DNA from: a virus
Length of the DNA: 64,000 nt
Direction: 5' to 3' (one strand)
Virus record (IMG/VR): IMGVR_UViG_3300031688_000003
Location: 55,272-119,271 of that record
The notes below the pieces were generated by a model. That model had not been told where the DNA came from. It saw only the letters and a program-made list of their open reading frames with translations, and made no database searches. Made by a program: the position numbers and the translations under genes. Below, piece after piece: positions 3 to 45,909 of this stretch (position 1 is its first letter; the number at the start of each line of letters is the position of its first letter).

Positions 3-3000
3 GATGAGCTAGAAGAAACATTAGGAGATACGTCTTGGGTGGACATAATGTCAAAAATGTCTGAGGAAGAGTTTAACAATTTTGTTGCACCTTATAGTAA
101 AAGAACAGATAGTTTAAACAATCTTAAAAGGTTTACAGGTGATGAGAGATGGTGGGCTGGTAATCTTGCTAATGTTATTTCTGATGAAGAATATGCAAAG
201 GCAAATGAAAATCGTAAATGGACAAGAGACAACCATAGAAAAGGGAACCTTCCTAATTATAGTGAAGTGGCACCACTTGGAAAATCTACAGAAGATGTAT
301 TTTATGATGCTGAAAAAGCTTACTATAATACACCAGTACACACTAAAGAAGAACTTAATGCTGACTTTGATACTGCTTATCCTTATACATTTAATTCAGT
401 TGCTGGAACGGATCCTTTAAATAAGATACCATGGAAGAATGAGATGAAGGATGATCCAGAAAAGTGGGAGGGTTCGTGGTCTGATTATATAAGAAGTACA
501 GATATACAACCTGACTATTATGAAATAGGGGACATAACCCTTGCTGAAGAAAGTAATCCATTTCATTTTGTATATGACGGTGGAGATCAAGATGGAGAGA
601 CAGTTAATACAGCAGTTCCAGATAAAGGGATAAAAGATATACAAGATGTACGTAGTCATGATGAATATATGAAATGGTATGATCATCATAAAAAGAGCGG
701 TGTTCTTAATAATAAATCTAAAAAAGATATGGATTATTGGGAAGCTTTAACTGATAAAGATAATAATGTATGGACATCTAACTTTAAATATACAGATGCA
801 TCACCAAGATATAAGGAACTAGATTTCCTTGAAAACCCTAATATGAATATATCAGATGGGGAAAGAGGGAGATTATCTGATAGATCTGAACAGTCGTTAT
901 CAAGATTTGAAACATTAACGGGTAGAGATAGAAAGATGTATAATGATAACCATTTAAATGAAATGGAATATTTTAATTCAATTGGTATATTTGAAACTCC
1001 TTTAGATAAACCTATTGCCTACTATCCTAAAGAAGAAAGGATGGAGTTAATGAAAGTATTAAATGATTATGAAAAGAAACAAAATTCTGAAAATACAGCT
1101 TGGACAATAGATTATAAAAATTCTGAGTTTTATGGTAAAGAAAGAACATATAAGTATGGTGGTTCACTTCCAAAAGCTCAATTAAAGCAAGTTAAGAATG
1201 CATATGCTTTAACTAAGAGTTTAATTAAAGGTAAGCAGTTAGGTAAGGTTTTAAATAAATCATTAAAACTTAATGAATTTATTCCTAAAGCATCAAAGGC
1301 TCCAATCATACCAAAAAATAAAATAGCTTATGTAACTCCTATAAATACAGATGTAAACATAAACATAGGTAATGATATAATATCTAATAACAAAACTGTA
1401 AATGCTGATAATAAATTTAGTTTACAATCAGATGTCTTTAAGAACAAAATACCATTAACAAGAGTATTAAGTTCTAAAGGTTTAAGATTTACGGATGGTA
1501 AATTATTTAGTTCAACAGAACCACATACACATTATAAATCAGACAGCAGAGGTGAGGAATTTCCTCTTCGTTTAAAATCAACAAATAGAAATACCACACA
1601 TTGGTCTTATGGTCATATAGGTAATCCTGGACATGGGGGTGGAAGTTGGTCAAAGAAGTCTACAGCTATCATTAATGATTATGAAAATTTGTCAAAATCT
1701 GGACTTGCCCTAGATCTTGATCCAACTGATACATGGTTCTATTCTAAAGGTAATTTTGAAATACCTGCTAATTCATTAATCTTGACTAGAGATAAGACGT
1801 TATATAAGAAAATAAAAAAAGAAACAAATATTACAAATATAAAACTATTTGAAAATACTAATAATGAAGATTTTGAAAGTATTGTAAACTCATATTCTAC
1901 AAGAGGAGGAAAAGGAGCATATACTAGACCAACGGATGATATGATAAATCCTAAAGATCAGTTTTTTAATGCAGGAGAAGGTGAAATGATAATGAGAGAC
2001 TATATGATAAAAAACTATAGTAAAGGAGATGATGTATCTTTAACACAGACTGCGGATCACTATAAACCTCATCAGTGGCAAGGACATGATTTTGATTGGG
2101 TACACCCCTTTACTGGTAAAAAATCAGGTATTACAACAATGCATCCAGATTTTGATCATTCTTATATGGATCTTGGAGATCCTTTTGGAGGAGGTCAGAG
2201 TAAGGCACACTCTGGTTCTCCATTATCTACTATAGAAAGAATGGAATATAATTGGGGAGATAATATGACAACTAATCATGGATTATACAGTAGTAACAAC
2301 AGATGGGGCAATGGTGATAGATCAGGAAGCTTAGATATATTAGCAAAATTACCAAAAACCATACAAGTAAATGAAATGGAGAAGGTAATGAAAACCTATA
2401 AAAATCAACGTGAAGGTCTTAGACTTCAACAAGAACTAGCAGAATTAAACGGGTTTAAATCATATAAAGAATTCAAGAACTCAATATCAAAACAAGAATG
2501 GTTAGATTTTAAGAGAGATGGTGGCTCACTAAACAAAGCACAATGGTGGAATCCTAAGAATGCATATGCTTTAGCTAATACTATATCTAAATCATTTAAA
2601 CCAGCTAAATCACTTCTTCCTAAACCTAGTTTTAAAAATATAAACTACCAAAAATTATTACCTTTTACTGAATCAGGTTCTACTCTTGTTCCTCAAACCC
2701 ATATGAGTAGTGGGAAGGAAGGAACTAGTATGGATCTATCAGAGACATTAAATTCTATTTATGCTGATAACAAACCTATGTGGTTTGGTCCTACTGCAAC
2801 AAGTAATAGATATAGAATGACAGATGATAATAATAAATTTATTCCAACAATTCCTGGACAAGGTGGACTTTTTCAAGTAGGTTCTGGAAGACTTGGTAAT
2901 ACAGGTAAACCAGGTTTTGATGAAATACCATTTACAGAAGCAACAATGCCATTTGGTGGTCTGGCAAATGATGGTTACCACCTTAATCTAGAAACTGGAT

Positions 3001-6000
3001 TGCCTAATTACAATGATCCACTAATGGATCACAAACTTTTAACAAAAAATGCTTTTCAAAATAAGATTGATGGTGTTTTTAATCCTAATACTAAGTTTAA
3101 AATATTTAAGAGTGACCTCTCCAAAGGTAATCATGCAATGCACCAGAAATGGTCAGACAAAGAACTTGCTAAAATTAAAGCAGATGGGTATGATGCTATT
3201 CAACTTGTAGATCAAAATGGTAATCAGATAGAAAATATATTACTTAATAAAGAAAAGTTTAAGATAAATAAGATCAATGATATGGATGTACACATTGACA
3301 ATCCTGAATTCAAATATGGTGGATCACTACCTAAGGCTCAATGGTACAATCTAAAGAATGCATATAATATCGGTAAGGGTTTAGTAAATACAATAAAGAG
3401 TCCTTTTATTAATGATTTAGTGCAAGGTAGTAATAAACTCTATAGGGGTATAGGACCAGCTGGATATAATAGTGCAGTAAATACTGGTAAGATACTATCA
3501 AATGTAAACCCAACTGCAGTAAATGAAGGTGCTTTTAATTTAACAAAGAACTTTGGAAATAAAACTTTTTTCACTCCTAATGTTGAAACAGCAAGTAAAT
3601 ATGGTGATGGTTATATAGCTGAAATAAATAATGATGTTAATGATTTTAGTAATAGATATAATTCAGACTGGAGTCAGTTTACAACTGACCCTGTTTTCTT
3701 AAGTCAATCTAACATATATAAAATGAATATGTTAGGAAATTATAAAAGAATACTTTCTCAAAATACAGTAGGAGATCATAGTAAAATAAACTTTTTAGAT
3801 AATGTTAAACTTAGGACAAATTATACATCTAGTACAGGTTTAGATTATTATGGTCATAGAAATGTTAAACATAATATAAAAGGAGGATGGCCTACACAGT
3901 TAGAGGTTGAAAAACTAAAAAAAGATTCAGGTTTAACACTAACACAAGATAACTTAAGAAGTTATGTAGAAAAGATTGGTAAAGTTGGCGGTGGTAAATA
4001 TCCTAAAACAACTTTATATAGATATGGTGATATGGCTACAAATGCAGCTGGTAATAAAGACATGGGTTACTATTCAGCAGATCCACTTGATCCACTTAGA
4101 TACAGTGAAAGAGCAGATAGAACTTTTAATGGAAGTGTTTTTAAAATTGATGTTGAAAATGAATTACTACCAGAATTTTATAAAGGAATAGGATTTGGTA
4201 ACCAAGGTAAAGAACCAGGATTTCAATCAGGAACATTATTTAAAGAATTTGAAGTTCCAGAAGATTTTTTAGGTAAATTTGGAAATCAACAAACTTTCAA
4301 AACTTTATCTGATTATAAAAAATGGCTTAATACAGTTAAGCAATCTGGAGGATCATTAACTAAACATCAAGTTCCTAAATTAATTAAAGGTGCATTAGAC
4401 TTAGGTAAGAAGGTGAAGAATATTATTTCTCCTAAAAATGTTAACTCAATTATAGATTGGAGTAAAGTCAGTCCTGCAATATTAGCTAATAAAAACTTAT
4501 TAAGTGAATATGCTGATATAGAAATGGCAACTAAAGCAAATGCAACATGGATGAAGAATGATGATGGTACTTCTTTCTGGGGTACACCTCAACAGTTTAT
4601 TCAAGTAAATAGTGAGGCCTTTAAAAACTCTTATCCAGAAGGTTATAAAAGAGTATTCAGAGGTGAGTCAGGTACTTTGAAATTAACAGATCCTCTTTAT
4701 TCAGGAGCTGCAGATATAGAATCAGGTAATAAAGGTATATTTACAGCAAATGAAGGTTTAGCTAAACTATATACAAACGATTATAGATTAGGGTCAAATA
4801 GTAGTATTCTTCAATTAGCAATACCTAGTGTTAGTGATGGTAGCAAATACTTAAATATAAACGGTCTAGGTAATGATTGGACAGATCTTAGTTCTATAGG
4901 TACTACAAAAAAGACTCTTGAACTAAATATAAAGAATTTAGAAAATAACATAAAGAAGGATGCAGAAGGATTTCAATGGGCATCTGGCAGTGGTAGTTTA
5001 GAAAGTTATGATGTAAATAAACACTTACAAAGTTATAAAGATTTTTACAATAACTATGATGAGATAGTTGCTAATCCTATCTATAAGAAATTACTTGAGT
5101 TTAAAGAAGCTGCTTGGGAAAATGACAAAATTCTTAATGGGGGAAATTTAGCAGGACGACAAAGTTTTGGAACTGGAGATGTAGGTGACTTTATGGAAAA
5201 ATCAGGTTTAAATAATATAAGATTAAACTATATAGATGATGGTGGTTTTGGAGATGTAACACTTAACAACCAGATACCAGGTAACTATCTAAAATCTCTA
5301 ACAAATAACAATGGTAGATTTAATCTAAAAAACCCCAACATGAATAGACAAAAAGGAGGATCACTACCAAAAGCTCAATTGCAATATTATGATAAAGCTA
5401 AAAAAACATATGATTTTGTTAAAGGATTATGGACTGTTGCTAAGCCTGTTTCAAAACTTGTAATACCAGGAAGGTCAGCTACTGATGTGGCTCATAAAAT
5501 AAAACCATTAATTAATAGTTACCAAAAACCAAATTCTGCTGGTGTTGCAAGTTTGATAAATCCTAACTGGACTGTTGATGAAGGTGGATTATATGAAGGT
5601 ATGGATAGTAGAGTTAGAACATTTATAGAACCAGGCCAGTATGGAATAAATGAACCTATAAGACTAATGGATGGTAATACTAGATTTCATTATGGACAGA
5701 GTCAAGGAAAAGATTGGGACGAATGGTATAGAACATTTCAGCATAATAACCAATCTTTATATCCAGAGATAGCTGAAAAAAATCTTACTCTTGAAAATGG
5801 AACATGGAGACCTAAAACACAGCTTGAACTTGATGATGATATACCAACAGAAGTTTGGGATCCTGTACAACAGAAATTTGTTAAACAAAATTTGAAAACA
5901 AGACCCTTTGCTGATCCCACATCCCTATATAGAGCTGTTAATGCTCCTGATATTCAAACTGCTGAAAAGTTTGGAACTACAATTCCTTCACTCAATTCTG

Positions 6001-7217
6001 GTGCAGATGGGAGAAGGACAGGATATACCGACTTACAAAAAAACACTCCATATGATGTTTTATTTACAACACCCAATGCAGGTTGGATAGGTGGTTCAGG
6101 TGTTGATGATCCATATAATTTATTTAATTTATATGCAAAAAAAGATCAAGGAAAATTTATAGTTAAAATGCCAAGAACAAATGGTGCTGTTGAGAGTTTA
6201 ACTCAAATTAATAATAGGACAGATATTTTAAACAATTCTCAATATCCGTACAGTGGAAACACTGGTTCAGTTTGGAATGAAGCAACTGGTAAATTTGATA
6301 TACCTACACATCTTGGTTCAGGTATATTCAATACAGTCTCTGGTAAGCCTGATTTAAGTTTAATACCAGAAGGATCAATTGTTAATCCAAATTATTCAAG
6401 TTTTAATGGTAACCAGATAACTCCAATATTTGGAACAAAAGGAACAACAGTTAGAAACGCACAAGATGTATTACCAATAGAAGACTATTTCAAAAAACTA
6501 AAAGAAGATCCTAATTGGAAATTTAATAAAGGAGGATCTGTAAAAGCTCAATATGTAGGTGAAACTAAAGAAGATATAGATTGGACAGGTACAACTCAAG
6601 GTGAGATACCAAGCAATGAACCAGACTTAGATCTTTTAAAGCAAGGTGTTGGTTATGCTGAAAGTCTTAATGGTGAGTTGATGATTAATTCTCAATCTAC
6701 TGCAACAGGATTATATGGTCAAAGATTTTCTGAAGTAAAGAAAGGTAAATTATATGATGGAACAAGAGAAGAATTTGCTGTAGATCTTGATGCTCAAAAC
6801 TCTTTATTTGAACAAAGATACAATGGAGAAATAAAAGATATACCAGGATTAAAACAAAGTGGTATAGATCTATATGAAGAGTATAACACACAAATAACAG
6901 ACTTTCCATACTCAACAACTGAAGTTGCTGCACTGGTAAACTTCATAGGTAGACAAGGTACAAGAGACTACCTAGGATACGTTCTAAGAGACGGTAATAC
7001 ATTAGAATCAGTATTCCCTACTAAGTATGGATCAAAAGCAAATCAGTCAAATAAGACTCCAAATGAATATATCACTAAATTTAATGAAGGTTTAAATATA
7101 AAAAAGAAAGGAGGTGAAGTAGATAAGCTTACTGAAAGATTGATAAAGAAATATGAAGAAGGAGGAACACTTACACCTGCAGGAACTAAACATTTAAAGT
7201 CTCTAGGGATGATATAA
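3..7217 (+). CDS. Giant modular virion protein (5'-truncated): several ADP-ribosyltransferase-like modules and a C-terminal lysozyme/transglycosylase-like module separated by KxGGSLPKAQ motifs
   Basis: Frame is open from nt 3, so the true start lies upstream (the track start at 39 is a GTG). Six GG-linker copies; LYRG/LYRY/FRGE/LYRA...(F/Y)(F/Y)(T/S) ART-type strands; WMKNDDG...QFIQVNSEAFK and LKSLTNNNGRFNLKNP resemble polyvalent-protein ART modules; AESLNG...STATGLYGQ resembles a lysozyme-fold catalytic segment. Confidence 0.75.
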   Translation, partial: DELEETLGDTSWVDIMSKMSEEEFNNFVAPYSKRTDSLNNLKRFTGDERWWAGNLANVISDEEYAKANENRKWTRDNHRKGNLPNYSEVAPLGKSTEDVFYDAEKAYYNTPVHTKEELNADFDTAYPYTFNSVAGTDPLNKIPWKNEMKDDPEKWEGSWSDYIRSTDIQPDYYEIGDITLAEESNPFHFVYDGGDQDGETVNTAVPDKGIKDIQDVRSHDEYMKWYDHHKKSGVLNNKSKKDMDYWEALTDKDNNVWTSNFKYTDASPRYKELDFLENPNMNISDGERGRLSDRSEQSLSRFETLTGRDRKMYNDNHLNEMEYFNSIGIFETPLDKPIAYYPKEERMELMKVLNDYEKKQNSENTAWTIDYKNSEFYGKERTYKYGGSLPKAQLKQVKNAYALTKSLIKGKQLGKVLNKSLKLNEFIPKASKAPIIPKNKIAYVTPINTDVNINIGNDIISNNKTVNADNKFSLQSDVFKNKIPLTRVLSSKGLRFTDGKLFSSTEPHTHYKSDSRGEEFPLRLKSTNRNTTHWSYGHIGNPGHGGGSWSKKSTAIINDYENLSKSGLALDLDPTDTWFYSKGNFEIPANSLILTRDKTLYKKIKKETNITNIKLFENTNNEDFESIVNSYSTRGGKGAYTRPTDDMINPKDQFFNAGEGEMIMRDYMIKNYSKGDDVSLTQTADHYKPHQWQGHDFDWVHPFTGKKSGITTMHPDFDHSYMDLGDPFGGGQSKAHSGSPLSTIERMEYNWGDNMTTNHGLYSSNNRWGNGDRSGSLDILAKLPKTIQVNEMEKVMKTYKNQREGLRLQQELAELNGFKSYKEFKNSISKQEWLDFKRDGGSLNKAQWWNPKNAYALANTISKSFKPAKSLLPKPSFKNINYQKLLPFTESGSTLVPQTHMSSGKEGTSMDLSETLNSIYADNKPMWFGPTATSNRYRMTDDNNKFIPTIPGQGGLFQVGSGRLGNTGKPGFDEIPFTEATMPFGGLANDGYHLNLETGLPNYNDPLMDHKLLTKNAFQNKIDGVFNPNTKFKIFKSDLSKGNHAMHQKWSDKELAKIKADGYDAIQLVDQNGNQIENILLNKEKFKINKINDMDVHIDNPEFKYGGSLPKAQWYNLKNAYNIGKGLVNTIKSPFINDLVQGSNKLYRGIGPAGYNSAVNTGKILSNVNPTAVNEGAFNLTKNFGNKTFFTPNVETASKYGDGYIAEINNDVNDFSNRYNSDWSQFTTDPVFLSQSNIYKMNMLGNYKRILSQNTVGDHSKINFLDNVKLRTNYTSSTGLDYYGHRNVKHNIKGGWPTQLEVEKLKKDSGLTLTQDNLRSYVEKIGKVGGGKYPKTTLYRYGDMATNAAGNKDMGYYSADPLDPLRYSERADRTFNGSVFKIDVENELLPEFYKGIGFGNQGKEPGFQSGTLFKEFEVPEDFLGKFGNQQTFKTLSDYKKWLNTVKQSGGSLTKHQVPKLIKGALDLGKKVKNIISPKNVNSIIDWSKVSPAILANKNLLSEYADIEMATKANATWMKNDDGTSFWGTPQQFIQVNSEAFKNSYPEGYKRVFRGESGTLKLTDPLYSGAADIESGNKGIFTANEGLAKLYTNDYRLGSNSSILQLAIPSVSDGSKYLNINGLGNDWTDLSSIGTTKKTLELNIKNLENNIKKDAEGFQWASGSGSLESYDVNKHLQSYKDFYNNYDEIVANPIYKKLLEFKEAAWENDKILNGGNLAGRQSFGTGDVGDFMEKSGLNNIRLNYIDDGGFGDVTLNNQIPGNYLKSLTNNNGRFNLKNPNMNRQKGGSLPKAQLQYYDKAKKTYDFVKGLWTVAKPVSKLVIPGRSATDVAHKIKPLINSYQKPNSAGVASLINPNWTVDEGGLYEGMDSRVRTFIEPGQYGINEPIRLMDGNTRFHYGQSQGKDWDEWYRTFQHNNQSLYPEIAEKNLTLENGTWRPKTQLELDDDIPTEVWDPVQQKFVKQNLKTRPFADPTSLYRAVNAPDIQTAEKFGTTIPSLNSGADGRRTGYTDLQKNTPYDVLFTTPNAGWIGGSGVDDPYNLFNLYAKKDQGKFIVKMPRTNGAVESLTQINNRTDILNNSQYPYSGNTGSVWNEATGKFDIPTHLGSGIFNTVSGKPDLSLIPEGSIVNPNYSSFNGNQITPIFGTKGTTVRNAQDVLPIEDYFKKLKEDPNWKFNKGGSVKAQYVGETKEDIDWTGTTQGEIPSNEPDLDLLKQGVGYAESLNGELMINSQSTATGLYGQRFSEVKKGKLYDGTREEFAVDLDAQNSLFEQRYNGEIKDIPGLKQSGIDLYEEYNTQITDFPYSTTEVAALVNFIGRQGTRDYLGYVLRDGNTLESVFPTKYGSKANQSNKTPNEYITKFNEGLNIKKKGGEVDKLTERLIKKYEEGGTLTPAGTKHLKSLGMI

Positions 7218-7296: not shown

Positions 7297-10200
7297 ATGG
7301 CAAAAGAATTTCCAGATAATAAAACTTTAGAAGTTTACCAGCAAGGTGGTGCTACTCAGAGTGTTAACTCATGTCCAGAAGCTATATCTGATGACATGAT
7401 AAATATAGATAATAGAGAACGTTCTATTGTAAGATCTAACTATAGTAAATCAAATACAGAAAGCAAATGTGGAAATTGTATCTTTTTTGACATATCTAAT
7501 AGGATAAAAAAGTGTGCAGATACTAAGTCAGATAATAAAGGATACTGCTGGGATCAAGAGTTTGTATGTGAATCTCAAAATATTTGTGATATGTGGGAAG
7601 AAGGTGGTCCAATCAAGTCTAACAAAGACTCATATGCACAAGATGAATCCTCTAATGAGTTTGAACAAAATAAAGCAGAAGTTGAACAGATACAAACTCA
7701 GAAACAGATGCCTGTGTTTAATGAGTCTCAACAACAACCAATGGCTCCGCAACAAGGTGCACCACCTCAAGCAATGCCTCCTCAACAACAAGCTCCTGCA
7801 CCACAAGAACAAATGCAACCTTCATTTGCATATGGTGGATCTTTAAGGAAGGCTCAAGAGCAACATGAAACAAATCCTATAAATCCTGTAACAGGATTAC
7901 CTTTTGAAGATGATATGTTGGCAGCAAAGAAAGAAAGAGATTTACAAGCTGCAAAAGAAAGAGAAGCAATATTAGCTCAACAAGGTCAAGATAATAATAC
8001 AGATATATATGATGAAGCAAATCCTAAAGAAGCAGGTTCATCACTTAAAGATAAATATAAAAACTGGAGAACTAAAAGAGCAATAAAAAAATATCAAAAG
8101 AGTTTAATCCCAGAAGCTCCATTTATGATGTATAACTCTGATCCTTCACAAGGTGTTCTAGGAGAGATAGGTAATTGGATGAAAAGTGCGAAGAAAGACT
8201 TTACTACTAATTGGGATAATAATAATAAGAAAAGTAACTATCAACAATTTAAAGTTTCAAATCCACATGATGATGTAAGATTCTTTGATCAAGATAATCC
8301 TGATGCACCACTGCTCAACTATGGCCAGAAGAATTCTAATGATTATAACAAGTTCTCTACTGACAGAACATCAGCATTTCCAGAACTATATCAAATATCA
8401 TCTATGGATAATGAAGGTAACATAAGTTACACAGGAGAGAAGTTGTTAGGGGATATGGTTGAAACAGAATACATGCCTGATGCTGTTCACATTCAACATA
8501 CTGAAGATGGAACAGGAGTTACAGGAGCATACATATATACTGGAATGAGTGATGCTGGAAAAAAAGAATATGAGTTTGTTCCTTTTGATAAAGAAAATCC
8601 TACTCAGATTTCAGTTGGACCATCTAAGCAAAAACGTGCTGAACAAGAAATGGCAGATAAGAATATATGTATAAATGCAGGTGGTGAATGGGATGCTGGA
8701 GTATGTACATATCCTGATGAGACAACTAAGAAAGATAATTTACAAAAGAAGAAAAATGAGAACTTTAAAAAGACACCATTAAATATAGAATTTGATAAAG
8801 ATAAACAATTTGGAGGTACTCCAACATTTGCACATATGAGAGATGGAGGTTCTCTGTCAAAGTTTCAAAGTCAAAGTGAATGGACAGATGAACAACTAAA
8901 AACATATCTAAAGTTGCAAAATGAAATGCTTGTTACTGGTGGTGTTGATGGATCTAAAATTGATCTATCTAAAAAAGATACTTGGCCTAGTGTTAAATTT
9001 TCAGTTTCAGATGGTACATATAATACAATGTATCCTTGGTTACCAGATATGTCTACTAAAGAAGGTAAGTCACAAATGTATAATTTACATAAAACTGCAT
9101 CAGATAAATTTCCTGATCAAACATACATGCCTGGTGTATATTGGGGATCAGATGATGAAGGTGGTGCATATCCATATCTAAATGAAACTGTTGAGGGTAA
9201 AGAAGAAAGAGCACGTCATACTGCATCATTGCAACGTGACTTTGCAACATTACAAGAAGCATTAGCATTTGCTAAAAAAGGTGGATATAATACTGAAGGC
9301 TTAAGTGTAAATGGTGTACCTATACAAAACGTTAGTAATATAGGTAGTTCTGCCGATGACATAGACTATGGTGCAGAAGGGAACTTTAATAGAAGAAGGT
9401 TGGGTATTAATAGAAGTGTAGGAACAGATGATTTAACAGGTACAGTTTATGATGCAGCATATAAACCATATCAAGAAAAATTACAAAAGGAATATGATAA
9501 CCATTATGCTACTAAGTCTGGTGTAGATAATTGGTCTATGGAAAAATTTATGAATGAGTATGATCATAGTGGATACAAGCAAGACTGGCAAGAAGTTACT
9601 GCAGATAACATGGAGGATGCTATAAATTATTCAGGTAATCAAGCCTTTGAAGGTTCCATGGGAGGTTATGGTGGAGGTGCAATAGGATATAATTCTGGTA
9701 ATAGTGAATACATTATAGGAAATGATACATTACCTAATCCTCAATTTCAAGATCATGGAAGGAATAAAGAAATGACTACTGATATGGGTTATATACCAGG
9801 ATTGGTTGGAGGAATGGGTGGATTAAAACTAGGAATGAACTTAGCAAAATATGTAGGAGGTTTCAGTGTTCCTTATACACAAGGAGCACTTACTTTTGGT
9901 AATGTAGCTAATGGAATGATGGCAACTAATGGTGTAGTTAACACTCTACCAACTGCAGTTAATAATTTTAAAGAAGGTGACTGGGAGGAAGGGTTGATGA
10001 ATACAGCTTTTGGACTTGGTGAAATGACAGGGTTTGGAAATATGGGTACTAATATTTTACCAAAAACATTTAATCAAGTCAGAGGTCTTAACTCAACAAT
10101 GCCTGCTTTAAATATTAAAGGTCAATCTAAAATTATGGAAAGTTTAAACGCAAATAAGAATTTGAGAACATTCAATGCAAATCCTCTTAGTAAAAGACCT

Positions 10201-12261
10201 TCACAGCTAGGTATACTTAAGGATTATATGAAAACTAATTATACTAATAAGTTGATTAATCCTAACTTTGCCCCAAAAGTATTTCCAACTAACTATACTC
10301 AATTTCCAGGAGTTCCAGGGTTAAAATATGGAGGCTCTTTACCTAAAGCACAAATACAAAATGGTGCACATGATGTAGCAGCTAATTATCAAGTAAATCC
10401 TGCACAGTTTGATTATGATACAAATATGCCTAAGGAAGGAGCAATTAGTGCATATGGAGATGTATGGCAAGGAGGACAATGGGTAGATGCTACTGTAGAA
10501 GAACAAGGTTTTAATACTCCTAATTCAGAACAGTTTGGAAATGTAAAAACTGCATTCTCAGATGAGACAGGTGTTACAAACCGTAATGCAAATTATGATC
10601 CAGATAGAGCATATCCTTTTTCAGCAAATGCAATAAACAAAGATATAAAATCTGCAGCAGCTAATAGCTTTGATGTAAGAAGAAAAGACATAGATATGAA
10701 TACTTATAAACCTGAAGATGGTTCTATAAATAAATCATATGGTGATATATATAATTCTGAGAGTGGAAACTTTGATGATAATCAATTTACACCAATGTTT
10801 GATCAAACAGATGATTTTGCATTTGAAGGAGATAATAATACATTAAGTAGAAGACAACTTAGAGATGTACGTCAAGATAATAGAAGACAAGCTAGAGCTG
10901 AAGATAAAGGCTTTGGATCTTATGAAGATATGCAAACTGATAAGAGTGAAAGAAAAGCAGAGAAAAGACAAAGGAGAAAAGATAAAAGAGATAGATGGGG
11001 TGAAACACCAGGGGCAAGGATGACTAATAAAGTGAATTATGCATTAGATAGTAATCTAGGTCAACTATTTCAAAAAGGATCTAAAGCTGCAGTAGAAGGA
11101 GCAAAAATTATAAATAATCAGTTTGATGGTTATAATGAAGATATGGAATCAGAAAAAGTTTTTGCTGGTAGATCAGCAGGATCTATGTATGGAGTAACAA
11201 GTTCTGATGCATTATCAAGAGGTGAACATGATAAAAACACTGGTATTTTCCAACCAGATGATAAAGTAATTTCAAGATGGGGTAAGTATGGTACTGAACT
11301 ACCTAGAGCACAAGGTCAAATGGAAACTGCTAGTATATATGATATACCAAATAAGGATGGTTCTTATAATGATCAAAATTGGTTTACAAAAGCTAATCAT
11401 GGATTTAGTGAGGGGGTGTATAATGATGCACAAAGAACAAATCATGGGGTGGCACCAATTGTAGGTGGTGGTATAATAGGTAAGATGGCAGACGTAAAAA
11501 GCATATATGATTTTGGTAAGAGTGCATATGATGGTGTAAGTAATTGGATAAATGAAGAAGAGGTAGATGAAATTGCTGGAACACCTGAAGGATATGCTAT
11601 GGATATGGCTAAGTATGGAGGTCACCTGAAAGCACAAAATCAAAAGGAAACTGGACTAAAAGAATTTTGTGTTAATGGACCAATAATTGATTCAGGAGGT
11701 AGAGTTTTTTCTCAATGTCAAAATAGAGATTTTGATTCTAAGCATGACTTAAGTTTATATGGAACAATGTCAATGGGTAAATTAAATGATGAATTTACAT
11801 CATCATTTGGATTAGCTCCAGGATATACTTTCAATCCTAGTGGAGGAACAAATGGTCTTAAAACATACGTTGGTGGAAACTATGGTTTACGTGCTACTGA
11901 AGATTCTAGTGTAGATGATGGATTGAATGGAACTACTGTGGATATGGATAATTATATGAAACTCTTGGCTTCAGTAGGATATACTGGAGAAGTAGGTGGT
12001 AACAATACTCAATATGGGTTTGGTGCTTATGCTGATAAAGATCTAATGGGTGATAATGGTACTACTTATGGTGGCTATGCTAATGTTGGACCTGTTACTT
12101 TTAAGGGAGGAATCAATCCAAACACAGGTCCACAATTTTCTTTAGGTATAGGGGCACATCTTAAACAAAGAGGTGGTGAACAAAAACAAAAAACAGTAAG
12201 TGTAAATTCAGATATGTATTACGAATTAATAGCTGCAGGAGCAGATATAGAAATTATATAA
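7297..12261 (+). CDS. Giant modular virion protein (1654 aa) with GG-linker motifs, N-terminal six-Cys module and C-terminal beta-barrel-like module
   Basis: Long ORF with an A-rich start context; motifs AYGGSLRKAQ, RDGGSLSKFQ, KYGGSLPKAQ, KYGTELPRAQ, KYGGHLKAQ; CGNC...C...GYC...C...CDMWEEGGP at the N-terminus. Confidence 0.7.
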   Translation: MAKEFPDNKTLEVYQQGGATQSVNSCPEAISDDMINIDNRERSIVRSNYSKSNTESKCGNCIFFDISNRIKKCADTKSDNKGYCWDQEFVCESQNICDMWEEGGPIKSNKDSYAQDESSNEFEQNKAEVEQIQTQKQMPVFNESQQQPMAPQQGAPPQAMPPQQQAPAPQEQMQPSFAYGGSLRKAQEQHETNPINPVTGLPFEDDMLAAKKERDLQAAKEREAILAQQGQDNNTDIYDEANPKEAGSSLKDKYKNWRTKRAIKKYQKSLIPEAPFMMYNSDPSQGVLGEIGNWMKSAKKDFTTNWDNNNKKSNYQQFKVSNPHDDVRFFDQDNPDAPLLNYGQKNSNDYNKFSTDRTSAFPELYQISSMDNEGNISYTGEKLLGDMVETEYMPDAVHIQHTEDGTGVTGAYIYTGMSDAGKKEYEFVPFDKENPTQISVGPSKQKRAEQEMADKNICINAGGEWDAGVCTYPDETTKKDNLQKKKNENFKKTPLNIEFDKDKQFGGTPTFAHMRDGGSLSKFQSQSEWTDEQLKTYLKLQNEMLVTGGVDGSKIDLSKKDTWPSVKFSVSDGTYNTMYPWLPDMSTKEGKSQMYNLHKTASDKFPDQTYMPGVYWGSDDEGGAYPYLNETVEGKEERARHTASLQRDFATLQEALAFAKKGGYNTEGLSVNGVPIQNVSNIGSSADDIDYGAEGNFNRRRLGINRSVGTDDLTGTVYDAAYKPYQEKLQKEYDNHYATKSGVDNWSMEKFMNEYDHSGYKQDWQEVTADNMEDAINYSGNQAFEGSMGGYGGGAIGYNSGNSEYIIGNDTLPNPQFQDHGRNKEMTTDMGYIPGLVGGMGGLKLGMNLAKYVGGFSVPYTQGALTFGNVANGMMATNGVVNTLPTAVNNFKEGDWEEGLMNTAFGLGEMTGFGNMGTNILPKTFNQVRGLNSTMPALNIKGQSKIMESLNANKNLRTFNANPLSKRPSQLGILKDYMKTNYTNKLINPNFAPKVFPTNYTQFPGVPGLKYGGSLPKAQIQNGAHDVAANYQVNPAQFDYDTNMPKEGAISAYGDVWQGGQWVDATVEEQGFNTPNSEQFGNVKTAFSDETGVTNRNANYDPDRAYPFSANAINKDIKSAAANSFDVRRKDIDMNTYKPEDGSINKSYGDIYNSESGNFDDNQFTPMFDQTDDFAFEGDNNTLSRRQLRDVRQDNRRQARAEDKGFGSYEDMQTDKSERKAEKRQRRKDKRDRWGETPGARMTNKVNYALDSNLGQLFQKGSKAAVEGAKIINNQFDGYNEDMESEKVFAGRSAGSMYGVTSSDALSRGEHDKNTGIFQPDDKVISRWGKYGTELPRAQGQMETASIYDIPNKDGSYNDQNWFTKANHGFSEGVYNDAQRTNHGVAPIVGGGIIGKMADVKSIYDFGKSAYDGVSNWINEEEVDEIAGTPEGYAMDMAKYGGHLKAQNQKETGLKEFCVNGPIIDSGGRVFSQCQNRDFDSKHDLSLYGTMSMGKLNDEFTSSFGLAPGYTFNPSGGTNGLKTYVGGNYGLRATEDSSVDDGLNGTTVDMDNYMKLLASVGYTGEVGGNNTQYGFGAYADKDLMGDNGTTYGGYANVGPVTFKGGINPNTGPQFSLGIGAHLKQRGGEQKQKTVSVNSDMYYELIAAGADIEII

Positions 12262-19512: not shown

Positions 19513-22500
19513 ATGGCTGAAATAGATGAAACCACACAAGGAAATACTAACCTTCCTCAAGATCAAAATATATCTAATCAAATGGTACAGGAAGAGTCTA
19601 TTCCTGAGAGTAATGTACCTCAAGTAAGTGATATAAATTTTGAAGATATTGCTGATATGATAGGTTCACCTACTGGTAACTTAGCTAGCCTTCAGCTTAG
19701 AGATCCTGTATTTGAGGGGATGTTAAGACAAGCTGCAATACCTATTAACTCAGCACCACCTATGACTGGTTTACATTCTTCATCTAATCCTTTACCTGGT
19801 AAAGCAACACAACATTATAATCCATATGAAGATTCCACGCCACCTGACATGACCACTATAGAGGGTAAGAAAAAGATGATGATGCAAGGAATGCATCAAG
19901 CTATGGTTAATCCAAGACAACAAAAAGCTCCAGGTTATAGATCAGATTTAGAATATGGAATAAGAGAAACAAATTTTGATAGATATTATGCACATAATAA
20001 ATATGATGAATTAGGATTTCATCCTTTTAGAAATAATGAACAAATATATAATGCTAATGCCACACTCTGGGATGATCATGCTAGAGCATGGAAACAAACA
20101 AGCCGTACTTATTGGACTGGTTTCACTTCTAGTTATGATGCTATAGGAGATTGGTTATCTGGTGATGGATACCTTTCTCCAGATAGAGATGGTGCAGAAG
20201 CTTTTGTTGATGCTATGCGTATTGGTAACTCATCAAAAGAAGGAGTAGGAGGTGCAGCAATAAGGTTTGGTTTAAATTCAGGATATACATTTGGTATTAT
20301 ATCTAATATCATGGCAGAAGAAATAGTACTTGCAGGTGTTACTGCACTTTCAGGAACAGGAGCTGCTCCAGTTGCAGCAGCAAGAACTGCTCAGAATGTT
20401 GGAAGACTAAAAACGGCATGGAATGCATTTGGGACAGCATTTAAAACAGGTGTTGGTCAGTCAACTAGAATATCAGCAGGTGCAAAACTTATGAAGGATA
20501 TGAATAAGGTGGAAAATGCTAGACATTTTTTTACTGCTGTAGGTGAGGGTGCTTTAAACTTTGTTACTCCAGGAACAATGCAGGCTATCCGAACTCTTAA
20601 CACTTCCAAAGGAGTTGTAAGAGGTGCTCAAAGTATTAAAAATGCAAATGCAGTATTTGGTGGATTTTATAGAGATATGAGACAAATCAATCTTGCAATA
20701 GCAGAAAGTAAGTTAGAATCAGGAATTGTTTATAATCAAATGATTGATGGTTTATATCATGATTATGTTGCACAATATGGTGATACTCCACCTTCAGAAA
20801 AGATAGATGAGATACGTCAAAAAGCAACTGCAGCTTCTAGTGCTACTATGGGTTTCAATGCTCCTCTTATATATTTATCTAATAAAATTGTATTAGGTAC
20901 ATTATTTCAAGGAATGGGTGGTGGTCTTAGTAGACTAGCATCAAGATATGAAGGTAAAGGTGCAGCACGTCTTTTTAGAAATAGTACAGTTAAACCAGCT
21001 GCAGCAAAAGCTACTACTGATGTAGCTAAAAAAACAATGTATGATGGTGGTTCAACTTTTATAAAGAGACTTAAAAATTTAGGTGTTAAAGGTTCAGCTG
21101 GTTCTGTTGGTGCTTTTGCATTAAGATACACAGGTGCTAACTTTGCTGAAGGTATTCAAGAACTTTCACAAGAGGTTATTGCTAAAACAGCAGAAGATTA
21201 TTACACTGGTTTATTTTTAGATCCAGCATCTATACAAAATATGTTATTGGATGCATCCCTTAAGGATGCAATAAATGCACAAATAAGCCCTCAAGGGTTT
21301 GAGGTATTTATGTCTGGGTTCTTAATGGGTGGTTTAGTTCAACCTGTACAACAAGGTCTAATGGTTGGATTACCTTCACTGTACCAAATGGGTAAAGGTC
21401 ATTATGGTACTAAACAAGATAAAGCAAAGTACCAACAATATAAAAAAACTAAAGAAGAATTTCTTTCTAAGTCTTTAGAAAACTTAAACCTTATTGCAGA
21501 AGATCCTTTAAAGTATTTTGATCCTACAAAATTAAATGCAGTAGAACAGAAGCAAATAAATGAAAGATTATTACAATCTTCATACTCATCTGATATGTTA
21601 TCATTCATGGATGATAAAGATCAGTCTATGTTCTCTCAACTTGATTACTTGTATAAGACTGGTAAATCTTCAGAATTTAAGTATCTATTAGAGGACTATA
21701 CTAAATTATCTGATGCAGAACTCTTAGAAGGTTTTCCTGAATATACAAAAGAGATTAAGTCAGGTAAGTTAAGAGGAAAATTAGAAAAAGCTATCAGTAA
21801 GATTGATGAGTTTAAAAAAGGTTGGGATATGGTAAAGATGAGTTATCCAAACCCATATGATCCATCTGAATTTATGGAGGGTTCTGCTGAATGGAATATA
21901 ACAGCATTACAATCATTAGCATATGATCATTCTACAAAACTATTAATGTATTCACAAGATACTTTTAAAAGAGCACTTGAAAGATCAAATAGTATATTTG
22001 AAAGGTTAAGTGGTGAATCTGTAATAAGTAAGTTTAATACTAATGATATATCTGCATTATTAGATCTTAAGAGTCTTAAAACTGAAATGGAACTTCTTAA
22101 GTCTGAAATTGAACTTGGAGCAACAACATCAGAACAGAAAGAACTTATAGAGACAAAAACAAAAAGGTTAGAGTTACTACAAAATTACTTTGATATAATC
22201 ACTAACCCAGAAAACTTTACTAAAAGAAGTGAAGATAATATTGCTATATCTGCAAAAACAGATATGGAAGCAACAGAAGAGACTGGAGATGACACTATGG
22301 AAATTGGTGGTCAAAGATATAAAGCAGCTAGAAAAGTAACTTCTGAAGTTGGAACTTTTGATAGAAGAAAAATTAATAAGTTAACTCCAGCATTTAATGC
22401 ATATATCAATTTCTTAGCAGAACAGAAAGGAGAATTCATTCATGGTAATGATATGACTGATGTGTTAAAAGATATAGTAGATTATAAATTTCTAAAAGGA

Positions 22501-25500
22501 AGATCACAAACATACTTCAGAGCTATTGAAAATTTGAATAATCCAGAAGCTATGGGTGATACAGCTCAGAGAATTGCTGAAAGATTAAAGATTATATTTG
22601 ATAGAAATAAAGAGGATGTTGAAGTTGCAGTTAAAAAGTATGTAAATGATTTAGAGAAAAATGAATTAATAAATCAATTTGCATCTCAGCTTATTTACCC
22701 TGATGCAGATCAAGTTATTTTATTTTTCCAAGAAGGTATTATACCAACTATATTTCAATCTCCATCTGGACAAATTACAGCACAAGATAATACAGGTAAG
22801 TGGGAAGCTATACAAAACCTAATCAAAGCATACCAAAATAGACCAGGAACAGAAACAACTGTTCAACCTGGAGATGCTGTTACTGAAGATGAAATAAATA
22901 ATGAAGATGAGTTTGATAGACTAGCAAATCAAGCTGAACAGAAAGTTACTGAAATATCAGAATCTACTAATGCTGTATTAGTTACAAAATGGAAATCATA
23001 TGTTCAGTCTAGAGTTGGTACTTCTGGAAAAGTTTTATCATGGAATGATTGGCAGAATACTAAAGAAGCAAAAAATATAAAAGCTATTAGAGCAGAGTTA
23101 GATGTTGTTTATTTAAGTAACTTAACTTTAGATCAACAACAACAAAAATCTTTTGATAAATGGTTAATTGAAAATCAAAGAACACCTGAAGTATATAGAA
23201 TACTTGACTCAAAGGGTGGGTCAATAAGTGATTATATTATTACTGATTCTGACACAGCACAAACTGATAAGTTAGATGCTGGAGATGTATTAACTGAAAG
23301 TCCTACAGGTATAAACATATTAAAGAAACTAGTGTCTAGTCAATCAGGTGATGATGAATTTTTCTATGAAGTTGTAGATAATAATATGAATAATCTACAT
23401 CAACAATATGTAAATGTTGATCCTAGTATAATGGATACATATGCTACTATGGGTGAGGCTTTAAAAGCTCAAGATGCAATTATAAAGTTACTACCTAGTA
23501 ATAGCACTTTCCCATTTCAAGGTAGAGATTTTCATTATAAACAGATATTACAAGATAACAACAAAGAACTTTTTACAGTAATCACAACACCTTCATTATT
23601 TAATAAGGGTGGTAAATTATACTTAAGACCTCTTGAATTTGCAAATGATCCTAAGAAAAGCTTTGAAGTAACTGATGTGGGTAATTATAGTCCATTAGAT
23701 GCTACTAATTTTAAGGCATCATCAAAGCAGGATAACTTATTAAAACTTAGACAATCAGAACCTATTAGACTATATGCTAGAAGAGCAGATAATGAAACAG
23801 CTGAAGATGCTGAAGTAAGATTAACTGATAGATTAAAAGAAATACCTCAAGAACAAGTTCGTGCTTTTACATTAAAGGTCTCTAGAAATGCTAAATGGGA
23901 AAGCTTTTTAAATGAAGAACCAACAAATAGAGGTAAGTTAGGTACTGAAGAGTTTAATAATCCAAGATTAAGAATTGGTTCAGAAGAATTAACTGTTGCT
24001 GTAATGCATGGACGTGAAATACTTGGATACTTACAGGGACCTACTGGATCTATTATTTTAGATGCATATGATAATGTTATAAATCCTTTATCTTTAACTG
24101 AAGATCAAGCAGAAGAGTACTTTCAAATATATAAAACATCTTCTACACAACTTAGAACTGCTGCAGAACAACTTCAAATAATAAAAAATAACTATGCAAG
24201 TAGTATTTTATTAAATAAAAAGCTAAGAGATCTATTAGGAAGTGATCAAGAAGCAGATATTCCTATAGCAAAAATCAAAGGTTTAGATCTTAGAATATCT
24301 CCAGGTGAAATGTCATTTGCTGCTAAAGGTAAAGGAGTAACATTTTCTGAATTACATAGTAGTACAGTTGATGGAAAGAATATATGGGTAGTAGATAACC
24401 GTAGTGATGGTAATGGTGGTATAATTACAAATATTACTGATGATGAAGTTTATGAAAAGACTGATGCATTAGTAAGTGCAGCAACTGATCAGTCAGGATA
24501 TAATCCTTTAAATACTAAAAGTAGATATGTTGCAGCAGTAAGACTTAACAATGGAACATTTACATTTGTAGAATTAAAAGCAGGTGAATTAACTAGTGAT
24601 GAGAAAAGTCAGTTAACATTAGATATTCTAAATGAACAAGATAAAACATTAGCTGAAAACATTGATAAAGAAAATGATGAAGTAAAAGATGCTACTGTTA
24701 ATTTTGCATTCAATGAAAAACTTAAAAATGATTTCTATGTATTTGGAAAAACTGGAGAGTTTATTGATATAGAACTTACAGCTAGAGGTGATGTACAAGT
24801 CATATATAGAAATACAAAGAAAGCTGGAAAAGATGGTAAAGCATTAAGAGTTACATATACTGTAAATGAGAATGAACTTAAAGGTGTTAAAGAATCTGCA
24901 AATCCTTTTAAAGAATTCTTAACTGTAATCAATAACAAAATTAAATTTAAAGATTCATCTATTGAAGTAAAGAGTGGTCTTAAATTAAGCTCAGATAACT
25001 TTAGATCATCTATACCTAAAGAAGCTACAATACAAGATCTTGCATCTGTAGTTACTAACTTTAATAAAGGACTAAGAGAAAACATTAGAATTGAAGCAGT
25101 CATTGCTGATTCAGCTCAGATTAATAATATTTTAAATAATGTAGAGCTCCCATCTTTTGTAAAGAATAGTGTTAAAGAACAAATAGAAAATACAGATCAA
25201 GTACTACTTGAAGCTGAAAGTGAAGCACCTGAGTTGACTCCAGAGTATATGAGACGTTTATTTGCAGAAGGATATGTAAATATAGACACTAACATTATAA
25301 AAGCAATAGCTAGAAAGCTAGCAACTAATATAGAATTATCAGCAGCTGAACGTACAATTTATGCTAATAATAAAAATACACAAGTACGTGATGATATAAA
25401 CTTATTAAAGCTTACATATAGATCAGGTGTAATTGAAGAGGGTGGTTCCACTGATATTGATATTGAAGGTAATCCAGTTGTAGTTGAAAAATCTCCATCA

Positions 25501-28500
25501 AGAAAAATAGCTGATCAAATTAAAGATCTTGAAGAAGAATCTGGTAAGTTAGAAGATAAAATTTGGGAAGATACATATTATAGCATTGCTTCTGATGAAC
25601 AAATTAAAGCAGATCCTAGTGTGATAAAAGAAGGTAACATTGCTGCTAATGATGCTATTGAGAATAGTGAAGAATTAAAAAGTATTGAAGCTAAGATTGC
25701 TGAGTTAAAAAAGAACTTAGCTCCAAAGGTTATTAATGAAAGACTTGGTCAAGAACATATTGAACAAATTGATGAATTTATTACTTGGTCTCAACAGAAC
25801 TTACCTGACTTTATTCAAATACAAGACATAAGAGATTTATCAGCTAGACTAAAAGAGAATGGTAAGACAGCTGGTATGTTTACATTAGAACTAAACACAT
25901 TAGGAAATAATATAGAAGGTAATATATATGTAGGTGCACAAACACCATTTAAATACCACGAAGCATTTCACGGGGTGTTTAGAATGTTACTTAGTGAAGA
26001 AGAGATTAGAAAATATATTTCACTTGCTAAAACAGAGAAGCTTGCTGCACTTAGGAAAGAAGGTAAAAAACTATCACAAGCTCTTAATGAACTTAGAACA
26101 TCACATAGTATCTATAATAAACTATCTAAAACAGAATTAGAACATAGACTATATGAAGAATACTTAGCAGATGCATTTGACGCATTTAAAATGAAGCCTA
26201 AGGGAACTAAAACTTCTTCTGAAATTAAGAGTCTGTTTACAAGAATTATAGAATGGATTAAAGCTGTATTTAATAGATTTAGTAAGAATGAATTAACAAC
26301 TTTATTTGAGAATATTGATTCAGCAAAATACTCTATATCTTCAGTTCAATCTAATAGGTTTACAACTGCTACAGAAACTGGCATAACCTCAGCTGCACCA
26401 AAAGTAATTGCTATAGATAGTTTTGAGAATACATATACAGATCCATTCACAGGACAAGAGATTGTAAGTTTATCTAATATATATATGCCTGCTAATGATC
26501 AAAGACAATTAATTGCTACTGTTTCAGCACTATACAGAAGCTATGTAGAGAGAGGTGATTTATTAACTATGTCTAAAAGAGATGTGTTAAATACAGCTAT
26601 TGCTGATTACACTAAACTTCTTAATCCAAGAAGAACTTACTACACTAGTGAATCAAATGGTATATCATTTAGAAGTATAAGAAAGAAACTTAAAACATAC
26701 TATAAAGCTTTAAAAACAAATAGAGACGTAATTGCTGAGAACGTTACTAATTATTTAGCAATCTTTGATGCCAAATATCAAATTGAACAAGATGCATTTG
26801 AAGAGCATATACATAATGAAGATAACAACATAAGGAAGGTTGACCAGTATGGTAAAGATGCTAGTCAAATAGGAGGAGCTATGTCATTATCAACTGAATT
26901 AAGAACATTTATTGCAACTACAGTATTATCAGAACAAGATTTATTTGGAAATACAGAAACACTAGAGGGAATTCCTATTGTAACTACAGTTGATTTTAAC
27001 TTTGCATATAGTGGTCTTCTAAAAGCTTTATCTGATAAGACAACAGACTTGGAATTATTAAGAGCACTTGCTTTATTTAGTTCATCTAATAAGAATACTG
27101 CAGCTGTAGCTAATAATATATTTAATGAAATAGGTATAATAGATCCAATATCTTTATTAGATGCAGAACAATTACCTGAAATATCAAATCCAAATTTCTT
27201 ACAAAAAGTTATAAAAGGATTTAATATGTTTAGAGTAGACTATATGTTTGCTCATAAAGATGATGATACTGGTATTGTGTTCTTATATGCAGCAAATAAG
27301 AAAGATGATGCACATTCACAAATAGATCATTGGTCTCAGCACTTTGATGAAGTTTATCCTACATTATTAACTGATGATGGAAAGAAAAAAGCTGTATCAT
27401 TACTTAACTTGTTTTACTCTAAACTTCAGAATCCAAAAGAAAGAAGTAGGAATGCATTAGACATAGAATCAAAGGATATAGCTAAAAAGATATATGAACA
27501 AATTGGTATACAACTAAACGCTGAAACTATTAAGTATAGTATATTATCTACCAAAGTAGTTAGAAAGAACTGGGAAGAAGCAATTGTTTCTTTAGGTTTG
27601 TCTGCTGGAGCTGATCCAATTGTATCAGAAGATATTGCTGAGTTAAGAAATTCAATTTCAAGAGGGGAAAACATATTCTTAGATAATCAAACTAACATAC
27701 CTGAGAATGAAGCTGAAGAACAAAGCACACCTGAGGTGGTTGAACAAAGTACAGGTATTAGTAGTAGATTAAAAAAGATGGCTAATACAAATGCTAACTT
27801 TGATGAGACAGTAGGTGCTACAGTATTTAGAGATCCAAAAGGTAATTTAATATATGCTCATCAGATGCCTACATTCCATTTAGTGAAGATTGCTGAAATG
27901 AGTGAAGCTAATTGGGCAAGTACTAAATTAGAAGAGAATAAATTCTTTAATAGAAATTACTTATTAAACAATGATAAGTTCTTGGCTCATGCAAAATCTG
28001 GACAATTAAAGGTATCAAGATTTATAGGAAGTAAGGAAGGTAGACTAACTGAGAATGAACAAGGAACTCTAATAGAGAATAGAGGTTTAAACACTAATCA
28101 AAAAGATGGTGTATCATTTGGAGAATCAACAGGTGCAGAATTTATTGCTGATGTTCTTAACTCTTATGTATATAACTATAATAGAAATAGTCAATCTGTA
28201 CCCTTAAACCCATATGATAAAAATGGTAAGGAGTTATTTTATATAACTGCTCCCGTAGATTTGAAAGTATTATCTGATGCTAGTACTTCAGACTTTGTTG
28301 ATCTACCAATTGAAAAAATGATAGAGCAAGATGAATCAGGAGATATTAAACTTACTGACCATACTCTTGATGCATTGATCAATAACATTTTACAATATGA
28401 ATATGACCGTGTTGCAGATGAATTAAATGCAGAGACAACTGCTAAAGATGTCATAGAAGGATTCAATACAGATATTATAAAGAAAGGAGTACAAACAGGT

Positions 28501-45281: not shown

Positions 45282-45562
45282 CAAAAGAATTAAGTGAAGA
45301 TACAGCAATCAAATTAAGTATAAAAACCTTAGGGGGAATTGCTACACTAATTGCTATACTAGTTGGGATGTGGTTTAATTTACACGGTGAGATTGCAGAG
45401 GCTAAAACTCTTCCAGCTCCAGTACCACCAGACGTAAGTAGAATGGAATTTGATATGAAAGATCAAAACATCAGGTTGTCTATTGAAAATACTGAAAAAG
45501 CTGTTGATGACTTAAAAAACAGATTAATTAGAATGGAAGATAAATTAGATAAGCTACGATGA
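45278..45562 (+). CDS. Small membrane protein (one TM helix plus coiled coil)
   Basis: TLGGIATLIAILVGMWF hydrophobic helix, C-terminal heptad pattern. Confidence 0.6.
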   Translation: MTKELSEDTAIKLSIKTLGGIATLIAILVGMWFNLHGEIAEAKTLPAPVPPDVSRMEFDMKDQNIRLSIENTEKAVDDLKNRLIRMEDKLDKLR

Positions 45563-45909
45563 AAGTTATTTGGAGAATATTTACTGGGTATTTATTAATA
45601 TTATTATTTTTAATATTTAGTTCAAATGTCTCAGGTCAAATTGTAGTAACTCATTTTAATGCTGCCTGGAATGATCCTAATAAAGTAAGTTACATTGGAG
45701 ATCTAACAGACTGTGATATAGTTTATGTTGATATAGCAGTAGCACCAAAACTACAAACTAAACATAAAATAGTAGTAGTACCAACTGTTATTATCTATAA
45801 AGATGGAGAAGAACAAAAAAGATACCAAGCTGACATATCATTTAGTATGAAAGCTACAAGAAAAGAAATGCAAGATTATATTGACGAATTATTAATGGAA
45901 GACTTCTAA
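45559..45909 (+). CDS. Exported thioredoxin-fold protein lacking CxxC
   Basis: Signal/TM segment ending VSG|Q; VVTHFNAAWN where FxAxWCxxC is expected; cis-Pro motif VVPTVIIYKDGEEQKR. Confidence 0.7.
   Translation: MKVIWRIFTGYLLILLFLIFSSNVSGQIVVTHFNAAWNDPNKVSYIGDLTDCDIVYVDIAVAPKLQTKHKIVVVPTVIIYKDGEEQKRYQADISFSMKATRKEMQDYIDELLMEDF

Follow-up and report, generated by a model that had tools for sequence, protein, structure and literature searches.

The window examined here, the final 64 kb of a virus record of 119,271 bp (IMG/VR record IMGVR_UViG_3300031688_000003, positions 55,272 to 119,271; 64,000 nucleotides [nt]), opens inside a giant open reading frame (ORF) whose product is probably a cargo protein of the polyvalent kind, from a crAss-like phage of Bacteroidota, with at least three modules of the ADP-ribosyltransferase (ART) fold. 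The ORF occupies positions 3 to 7217 of the window (2,404 amino acids [aa]; positions are those of the window unless stated, and all modules lie on its plus strand). On the start codon side it extends 672 nt upstream of the window, and at its whole-record length of 2,629 aa it is identical to protein P0002. We refer to its product as the cassette protein and give module residues as those of the translation of the window part (P0001). A sequence-only reading of this DNA had described a tandem of at least five divergent ART-like modules; the five that it listed correspond here to M2, M3a, M3b, M4, and M5b (a to e, respectively). The motifs lie at the positions given in that reading and share one frame of a single ORF, and its segments match the module limits set by a recurring GGSLPKAQ-type peptide. 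The ART-like character of M2, M3a, and M4 was borne out by predicted fold, and that of M4 also by profile homology, whereas M3b and M5b yielded weak leads from the ESM Atlas. Both the count of five and the functional picture attached to it exceed the evidence.

ART-like folds predicted for M2, M3a, and M4

M4 (P0001 residues 1449 to 1784; positions 4347 to 5354) has an ART core at positions 4455 to 5309, which includes a ∼100-aa helical insert (4908 to 5204). An exhaustive representative search returned 563 relatives, most of them of M4, and the family is flanked by WMKNxDGSxFxGTPEQF ahead of the core and by NNGMFDMTNPNIYK behind it. Many phage proteins have M4-type flanks around a shorter core, and such shorter cores pass the Pfam model PF18760 (58.1, 53.2, and 45.5 bits; cutoff, 31.2). 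When compared without its flanks by hhalign, the M4 core matched these Pfam-positive cores (91.2%; E = 1e-6; 82 columns). The flanks in common and the hhalign match lead us to regard M4, at the level of sequence, as a derived ART-PolyVal domain, in agreement with the sequence-only reading, which had likened it to the ARTs of polyvalent proteins.

The ART-PolyVal active site consists of His on strand 1, Tyr on strand 2, and Asp on strand 5 (PMC5512222). At these sites, the M4 family has Arg (135 of 146 sequences), Phe (130) followed by Thr (120), and Asp or Asn (84 and 22, respectively). R105, F132, Y142, and D298 are invariant in the M4 core, with R105 and D298 present in 30 of 30 homologues. 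The candidate residues in the window are Arg105 (positions 4659 to 4661), Phe132-Thr133, Asp298 (5238 to 5240), and Asp303 (5253 to 5255), and the predicted model places R105 on strand 1 and F132-T133 on strand 2, with the last hairpin bearing both D298 and D303.

M2 and M3a have comparable arrangements in the model. The core of M2 (residues 840 to 1105; core at positions 2673 to 3311) has a predicted ART-like fold with a candidate triad of His61 (2700 to 2702) on strand 1, Trp88/Phe89 on strand 2, and Gln236-x-Glu238 (3231 to 3233) on a late strand, all invariant in 12 of 12 sequences. M3a (residues 1106 to 1277; positions 3426 to 3767) is predicted to fold as a minimal ART-like domain (about 110 aa). 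Its candidate residues are Arg (3444 to 3446) on strand 1, the Thr-Pro of FFTP at the end of strand 2, and Glu (3621 to 3623) on strand 3; the Arg and Glu are kept in 8 of 8 homologues. An ART-PolyVal-type domain nearly always follows M3a in direct fusion, with no linker in between (L042, L056, L058, L059, L064, L066, and others, as well as P0087 [384 aa], P0114, and P0112). The two make up a two-domain unit that is widespread in uncultured phages.

The AlphaFold model covers P0001 residues 840 to 1960 (1,121 residues, with M5b lying outside) and was built from alignment A11, whose 62 rows consist of clean segments of the modules taken from IMG/VR and from metagenome loci. Confidence was high for M4 (predicted local distance difference test [pLDDT], 87 to 97), moderate to high for the M2 core, M3a, and M3b, and poor for M5a. 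When the model was compared with 48,161 representative chains by VIA-align, most rows were helical hairpins on the M4 insert, and five rows were placed outside it: AcrIF11 (6kyf, confirmed as the phage ADP-ribosyltransferase; row 1, 6.5), the VPA0770 toxin (row 7, 6.0), and exotoxin A (row 38, 5.6) on M4, mouse Tpt1 (row 45, 5.5) on M3a, and PARP-1 (row 50, 5.4) on M2. A Foldseek search of the 1,121-residue model against the PDB gave nothing at an E of ≤1e-3, with ART enzymes heading the list, and the candidates that we reexamined were nearly all ART-fold proteins, distributed across the M2, M3a, and M4 regions. In the viral library BFVD, there were 11 matches at an E of ≤1e-3, mostly proteins named PolyVal ADP-ribosyltransferase or ART-PolyVal-like, some from crAss-like viruses. 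The matches span most of their targets (124 of 159 residues of ParT and, for the ART-fold half of Tpt1 [roughly 90 residues] or for TreX [128 residues], 77 to 88 aligned residues). M2, M3a, and M4 are thus predicted to have ART-like folds, each with a split beta-sheet similar to those of solved ARTs; M3b has no row in the lists of fold matches, which the other domains fill. The conserved residues of M2, M3a, and M4 may line an NAD pocket (NAD, nicotinamide adenine dinucleotide), and the modules may have catalytic ART activity.

The fold matches also include the RES-type toxin of an Xre-RES pair, MbcT, and NatT, which are toxin-antitoxin toxins of the same fold that act on NAD+ itself. At least one module may be an NAD+-degrading enzyme (a glycohydrolase or phosphorylase) that lowers host NAD+ or destroys NAD-derived defense signals at entry. 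We find this quite unlikely, as the transferases ParT, AcrIF11, exotoxin A, Tpt1, and TreX match as well or better; the fold by itself does not distinguish between transferase and NAD+-degrading chemistry.

Several observations weigh against an ART-bearing cargo protein. At the active-site positions, the M4 of the window (R105, F132-T133, D298, and D303) departs from the His-Tyr-Asp pattern, and its two nearest homologues have Asn in place of D303. PF18760 had no match in the whole protein (E ≤ 1) or the whole genome (E ≤ 10), and none of PF18760, PF03496, PF13151, PF15633, and PF24691 matched the cassette protein at an E of ≤10; searches of the genome with these five models were likewise negative. 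In hhalign comparisons, M2 and M3a showed no significant profile similarity to ART-PolyVal (M3a was borderline against the core, at an E of 0.028). The alignment behind the model had some misaligned rows; in several trial designs, rows of M3a or M3b were misplaced, with MAFFT drawing M3a rows onto the YRG strand of M4 or onto M3b, and A11 was judged by identity values alone. The virion location of the protein is read from synteny only, because it shows no similarity to GenBank phages: tblastn searches of 50,697 phage records with the cassette protein, its N terminus, and M4 gave no match. Other library searches were also negative. The whole cassette protein matched no family in Pfam and PHROGs, PF03496 (R-S-E ARTs of the Alt/VIP2 type) had no match in the genome at an E of ≤10, and neither phmmer with the cassette protein nor hmmsearch with three module alignments retrieved anything from the PDB sequences.

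Some of these observations would also suit degenerate pseudoenzymes in place of NAD-dependent effectors. Such modules would have a structural, binding, or spacer role within a very long ejection protein that helps to build a trans-envelope channel, as proposed for gp45 of ΦcrAss001. M4 has R/F/D for H/Y/D, with Asn for D303 in the two nearest homologues, no module is recognized by any Pfam ART model, and channel formation has been proposed for gp45 and gp46 (PMC10172136). We nevertheless rate this reading as somewhat unlikely, since the triad-like residues are invariant or nearly so (H61 and Q236xE238 of M2 in 12/12, R105 and D298 of M4 in 30/30, and Arg and Glu of M3a in 8/8 sequences), a degree of conservation that is not expected of spacers and disfavors that role. 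Arg at strand 1 is, moreover, a hallmark of one major class of active ARTs. Improbable, in our view, is that M4 is the only true ART relative and that the matches of M2 and M3a reflect a chance likeness of small alpha/beta domains, aided by imperfect alignment. In the M2 and M3a regions, the matches are consistently to ART-fold proteins, of several families, with most of the target domain aligned; the unbiased VIA-align search likewise gave ART-fold enzymes for each of the two regions. Strand 1 of each module, furthermore, bears a conserved His or Arg, strand 2 an aromatic residue or Ser/Thr, and a later strand an acidic residue, and M3a almost always has an ART-PolyVal module as its neighbor.

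Cassette architecture and the linker peptide

The modules are delimited by a linker peptide, [K/Y]xGG-S-L-P-K-A-Q, of which the cassette protein has six copies (positions 1158, 2520, 3318, 4347, 5355, and 6531). The copy at 2520 to 2543 (GGSLNKAQ, plus strand) is the first element of the M2 cassette, and a degenerate copy (RDGGLIKHQ) forms the end of the first 190 residues. A six-frame scan of the genome found strict copies confined to the cassette ORF and to the next giant ORF (7297 to 12261), which has three (GG-S-L-x-K-A/F-Q at 7834, 8845, and 10330). Among 163 homologues, the motif occurs 58 times at cassette borders, against 0.4 occurrences in shuffled sequences. It follows M2 in 13 of 13 cases and M3a in only 1 of 35, so M3a and the domain behind it seem to constitute a single cassette. 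A text search of the literature for the GG-SLPKAQ peptide found nothing relevant.

The nine linker copies in the window vary at synonymous positions, which indicates that the linker is conserved at the peptide rather than the DNA level; on the same ground, we rejected the linker as a DNA-level recombination site. As a peptide, it could serve for cleavage or for docking, or it could act as a flexible hinge; we do not favor any one of the three.

The two ends of the protein, ∼190 aa at the N terminus and ∼225 aa at the C terminus, are conserved in homologues (up to 92% identity), and the cassettes in the middle vary in number and order. This combination shows that cassettes are swapped between homologues, as the sequence-only reading had proposed for its modules. 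Its description of the modules as divergent also holds, as BLAST and hhalign detected no paralogy between M2, M3a, M3b, M4, and M5b. That the five are recent tandem duplicates was rejected, since they have nothing in common beyond the linker region. In the homologue P0006, a module of the next ORF is joined to an M4 module, so cassettes also pass from one of the two cargo genes to the other.

Two further domains were seen among the relatives. An N-terminal domain of about 66 aa (SGNITMKGVDFPVMGTDNLGN; L003:15599-15800, upstream of the window) occurs in 72 of the 163 related proteins, mostly at the N terminus and at times internally or at the C terminus; it may serve as a signal for packaging or docking. 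In the relatives P0011, P0012, and P0013, a SET (lysine methyltransferase) domain lies next to the M4 module and represents a further protein-modifying payload on the same scaffold.

The sequence-only reading had compared the protein to a MARTX-like payload. A defining part of such payloads is an autoprocessing cysteine protease that releases the effectors; a Pfam/PHROGs scan of the cassette protein and the neighboring late proteins found no peptidase family, with the folds of M0b, M1, M5a, and M6 unassigned. A more far-reaching proposal is that of an "effector magazine" family in the cargo slot, with the linker as a processing or docking signal and a chain of unrelated NAD-using enzymes, including an Arg-type branch of ART-PolyVal and M3a in obligate partnership with another ART-type domain, each enzyme with its own host or defense target. 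We hold this to be unlikely, and the separate target that the sequence-only reading gave to each module is purely conjectural.

The cargo slot and comparison with known systems

The same record encodes a terminase (TerL), a portal, and a major head protein (MCP), and its family-B DNA polymerase is nearest to that of Cellulophaga phage phi14:2. The tail ring genes (genome positions 45434 to 47022) match CrAss_Ring_2 (PF25702; 66.5 bits) and, slightly below the cutoff, CrAss_Ring_1 (PF24228; 25.7 bits). They are followed by a 2,521-aa ORF, the 2,629-aa cassette ORF, and five more giant ORFs (1,152 to 5,127 aa). In ΦcrAss001, ring proteins are followed by the muzzle protein gp44, the cargo proteins gp45 and gp46, and the RNA polymerase proteins; the cargo is held in the capsid and tail, and its extrusion from the N to the C terminus has been proposed (PMC10172136). 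The cassette ORF lies in this crAss-like cargo slot, downstream of the rings and of the giant tail-end protein, and would be, by position, the counterpart of gp45. The sequence-only reading, which took it for a virion protein, agrees with this location in the late/virion block as far as synteny can speak.

Polyvalent proteins have ART as their commonest protein-modifying domain, in one to twelve copies per protein, and resemble the cassette protein in giant size, location in the late/virion block, several ARTs per chain, and domain shuffling (PMC5512222). Because multi-ART chains are a feature of the class of Iyer et al., the cassette protein fits the polyvalent class, and it extends this known phage theme rather than founding a new one. 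It differs in that its modules of the ART fold are not repeated copies; they come from at least three sequence families with no relation to one another. Compared with ART-PolyVal, M4 has an Arg-type site (R/F-T/D) and the ∼100-aa helical insert, and no module passes the Pfam model. The metallopeptidase proposed as the processing domain of polyvalent proteins was not found in the cassette protein, which has the double-glycine linker at its cassette borders.

The likeness to the cargo proteins C1 (gp45) and C2 (gp46) of ΦcrAss001 lies in the slot after the rings and the giant tail-end protein, the presumed storage in the capsid and tail, and the ejection, likewise presumed, in N-to-C order (Bayfield et al. 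2023, PMC10172136). The cassette protein is, however, about three times the length of gp45 (90.8 kDa), which has been described as a channel former without enzymatic domains. T4 Alt is likewise a packaged ART (of the R-S-E type) that is delivered with the DNA and has Arg on its first strand, as do M3a and M4, but Alt belongs to another ART clade, consists of a single domain, and is outside any polyvalent chain, and the cassette protein has no PF03496 match. AcrIF11, ParT, and the Tre toxins, at 11 to 14% identity to the modules, are free-standing and have known targets.

The conserved N- and C-terminal parts frame variable cassettes separated by the GG-S-L-P-K-A-Q peptide. From this build, we infer the course from packaging and ejection to catalysis, targets, and any linker processing. 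If the protein behaves like the cargo of ΦcrAss001 and like T4 Alt, it would be packed in the virion and extruded via the tail before or together with the DNA. Inside the host, the modules of the ART fold would draw on NAD+, with the result that host components are modified or depleted.

Few known viruses are as abundant as the crAss-like phages, and to our knowledge, the function of their packaged cargo proteins other than RNA polymerase is largely unknown. If the proposed reading is true, the first protein to leave the tail can bear enzymatic payloads besides channel-forming parts, and marine relatives exchange such payloads as cassettes. M4 (hundreds of members), M3a (dozens), and M2 (about a dozen) are three sequence families missed by current domain libraries, and as candidate ART-fold enzymes, they may act against host defenses as AcrIF11 does.

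Remaining modules and neighboring genes

M3b (residues 1278 to 1448; positions 3834 to 4346) is a small alpha/beta domain with few strands, in which TLYRYG, YYSADP, and FKEFEVP are conserved. It has 17 homologues and a pLDDT of 70 to 91 over model residues 490 to 609. No ART-fold row for M3b appears in the lists of fold matches, which are dominated by other domains. Among the nearest named clusters, the ESM Atlas gave Tox-ART-HYD1 (0.90) and TreTu_C (0.88) for M3b and a Tox-ART-HYD1 cluster (0.88) for M5b, scores that the tool itself rates as leads only, and they hint weakly at ART nature for the two modules. The Pfam hidden Markov models of Tox-ART-HYD1 and TreTu_C matched neither M3b nor M5b, and M2, M3b, M5a, and M5b had no hhalign match to the ART-PolyVal core. 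The place of M3b directly after M3a is that of an ART-PolyVal-type domain in most relatives; this is suggestive as to ART nature and bears on position, not fold.

M5a (residues 1785 to 1954; positions 5355 to 5864) is a small conserved domain (NEPIKLMDGNTRFWLGE), modeled by AlphaFold with low confidence, and is fused without a linker to M5b (residues 1955 to 2176; positions 5865 to 6530). M5b has conserved SLYR, GRR, and LxTT motifs and only three homologues, none of them in IMG/VR. The C-terminal module M6 (residues 2177 to 2404; positions 6531 to 7217) is, like the N terminus, among the parts conserved across homologues. Its GYAES…STATGLYGQ (6531 to 7214) bears a likeness to the Glu-Ser and GLMQ catalytic motifs of lytic transglycosylases, such as that in T7 gp16; no library match confirmed the likeness.

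The 2,521-aa ORF in the muzzle-protein slot (L003:8034-15599) has a von Willebrand factor A domain at about residue 2000 (24.4 bits, at the cutoff). The 5,127-aa ORF (window positions 19513 to 34896) has no Pfam match whatever; by position, it should contain the virion RNA polymerase parts, which in ΦcrAss001 are encoded by separate genes. An 816-aa ORF (45909 to 48359) has a C-terminal type IX secretion sorting domain (PF18962; 32 bits).
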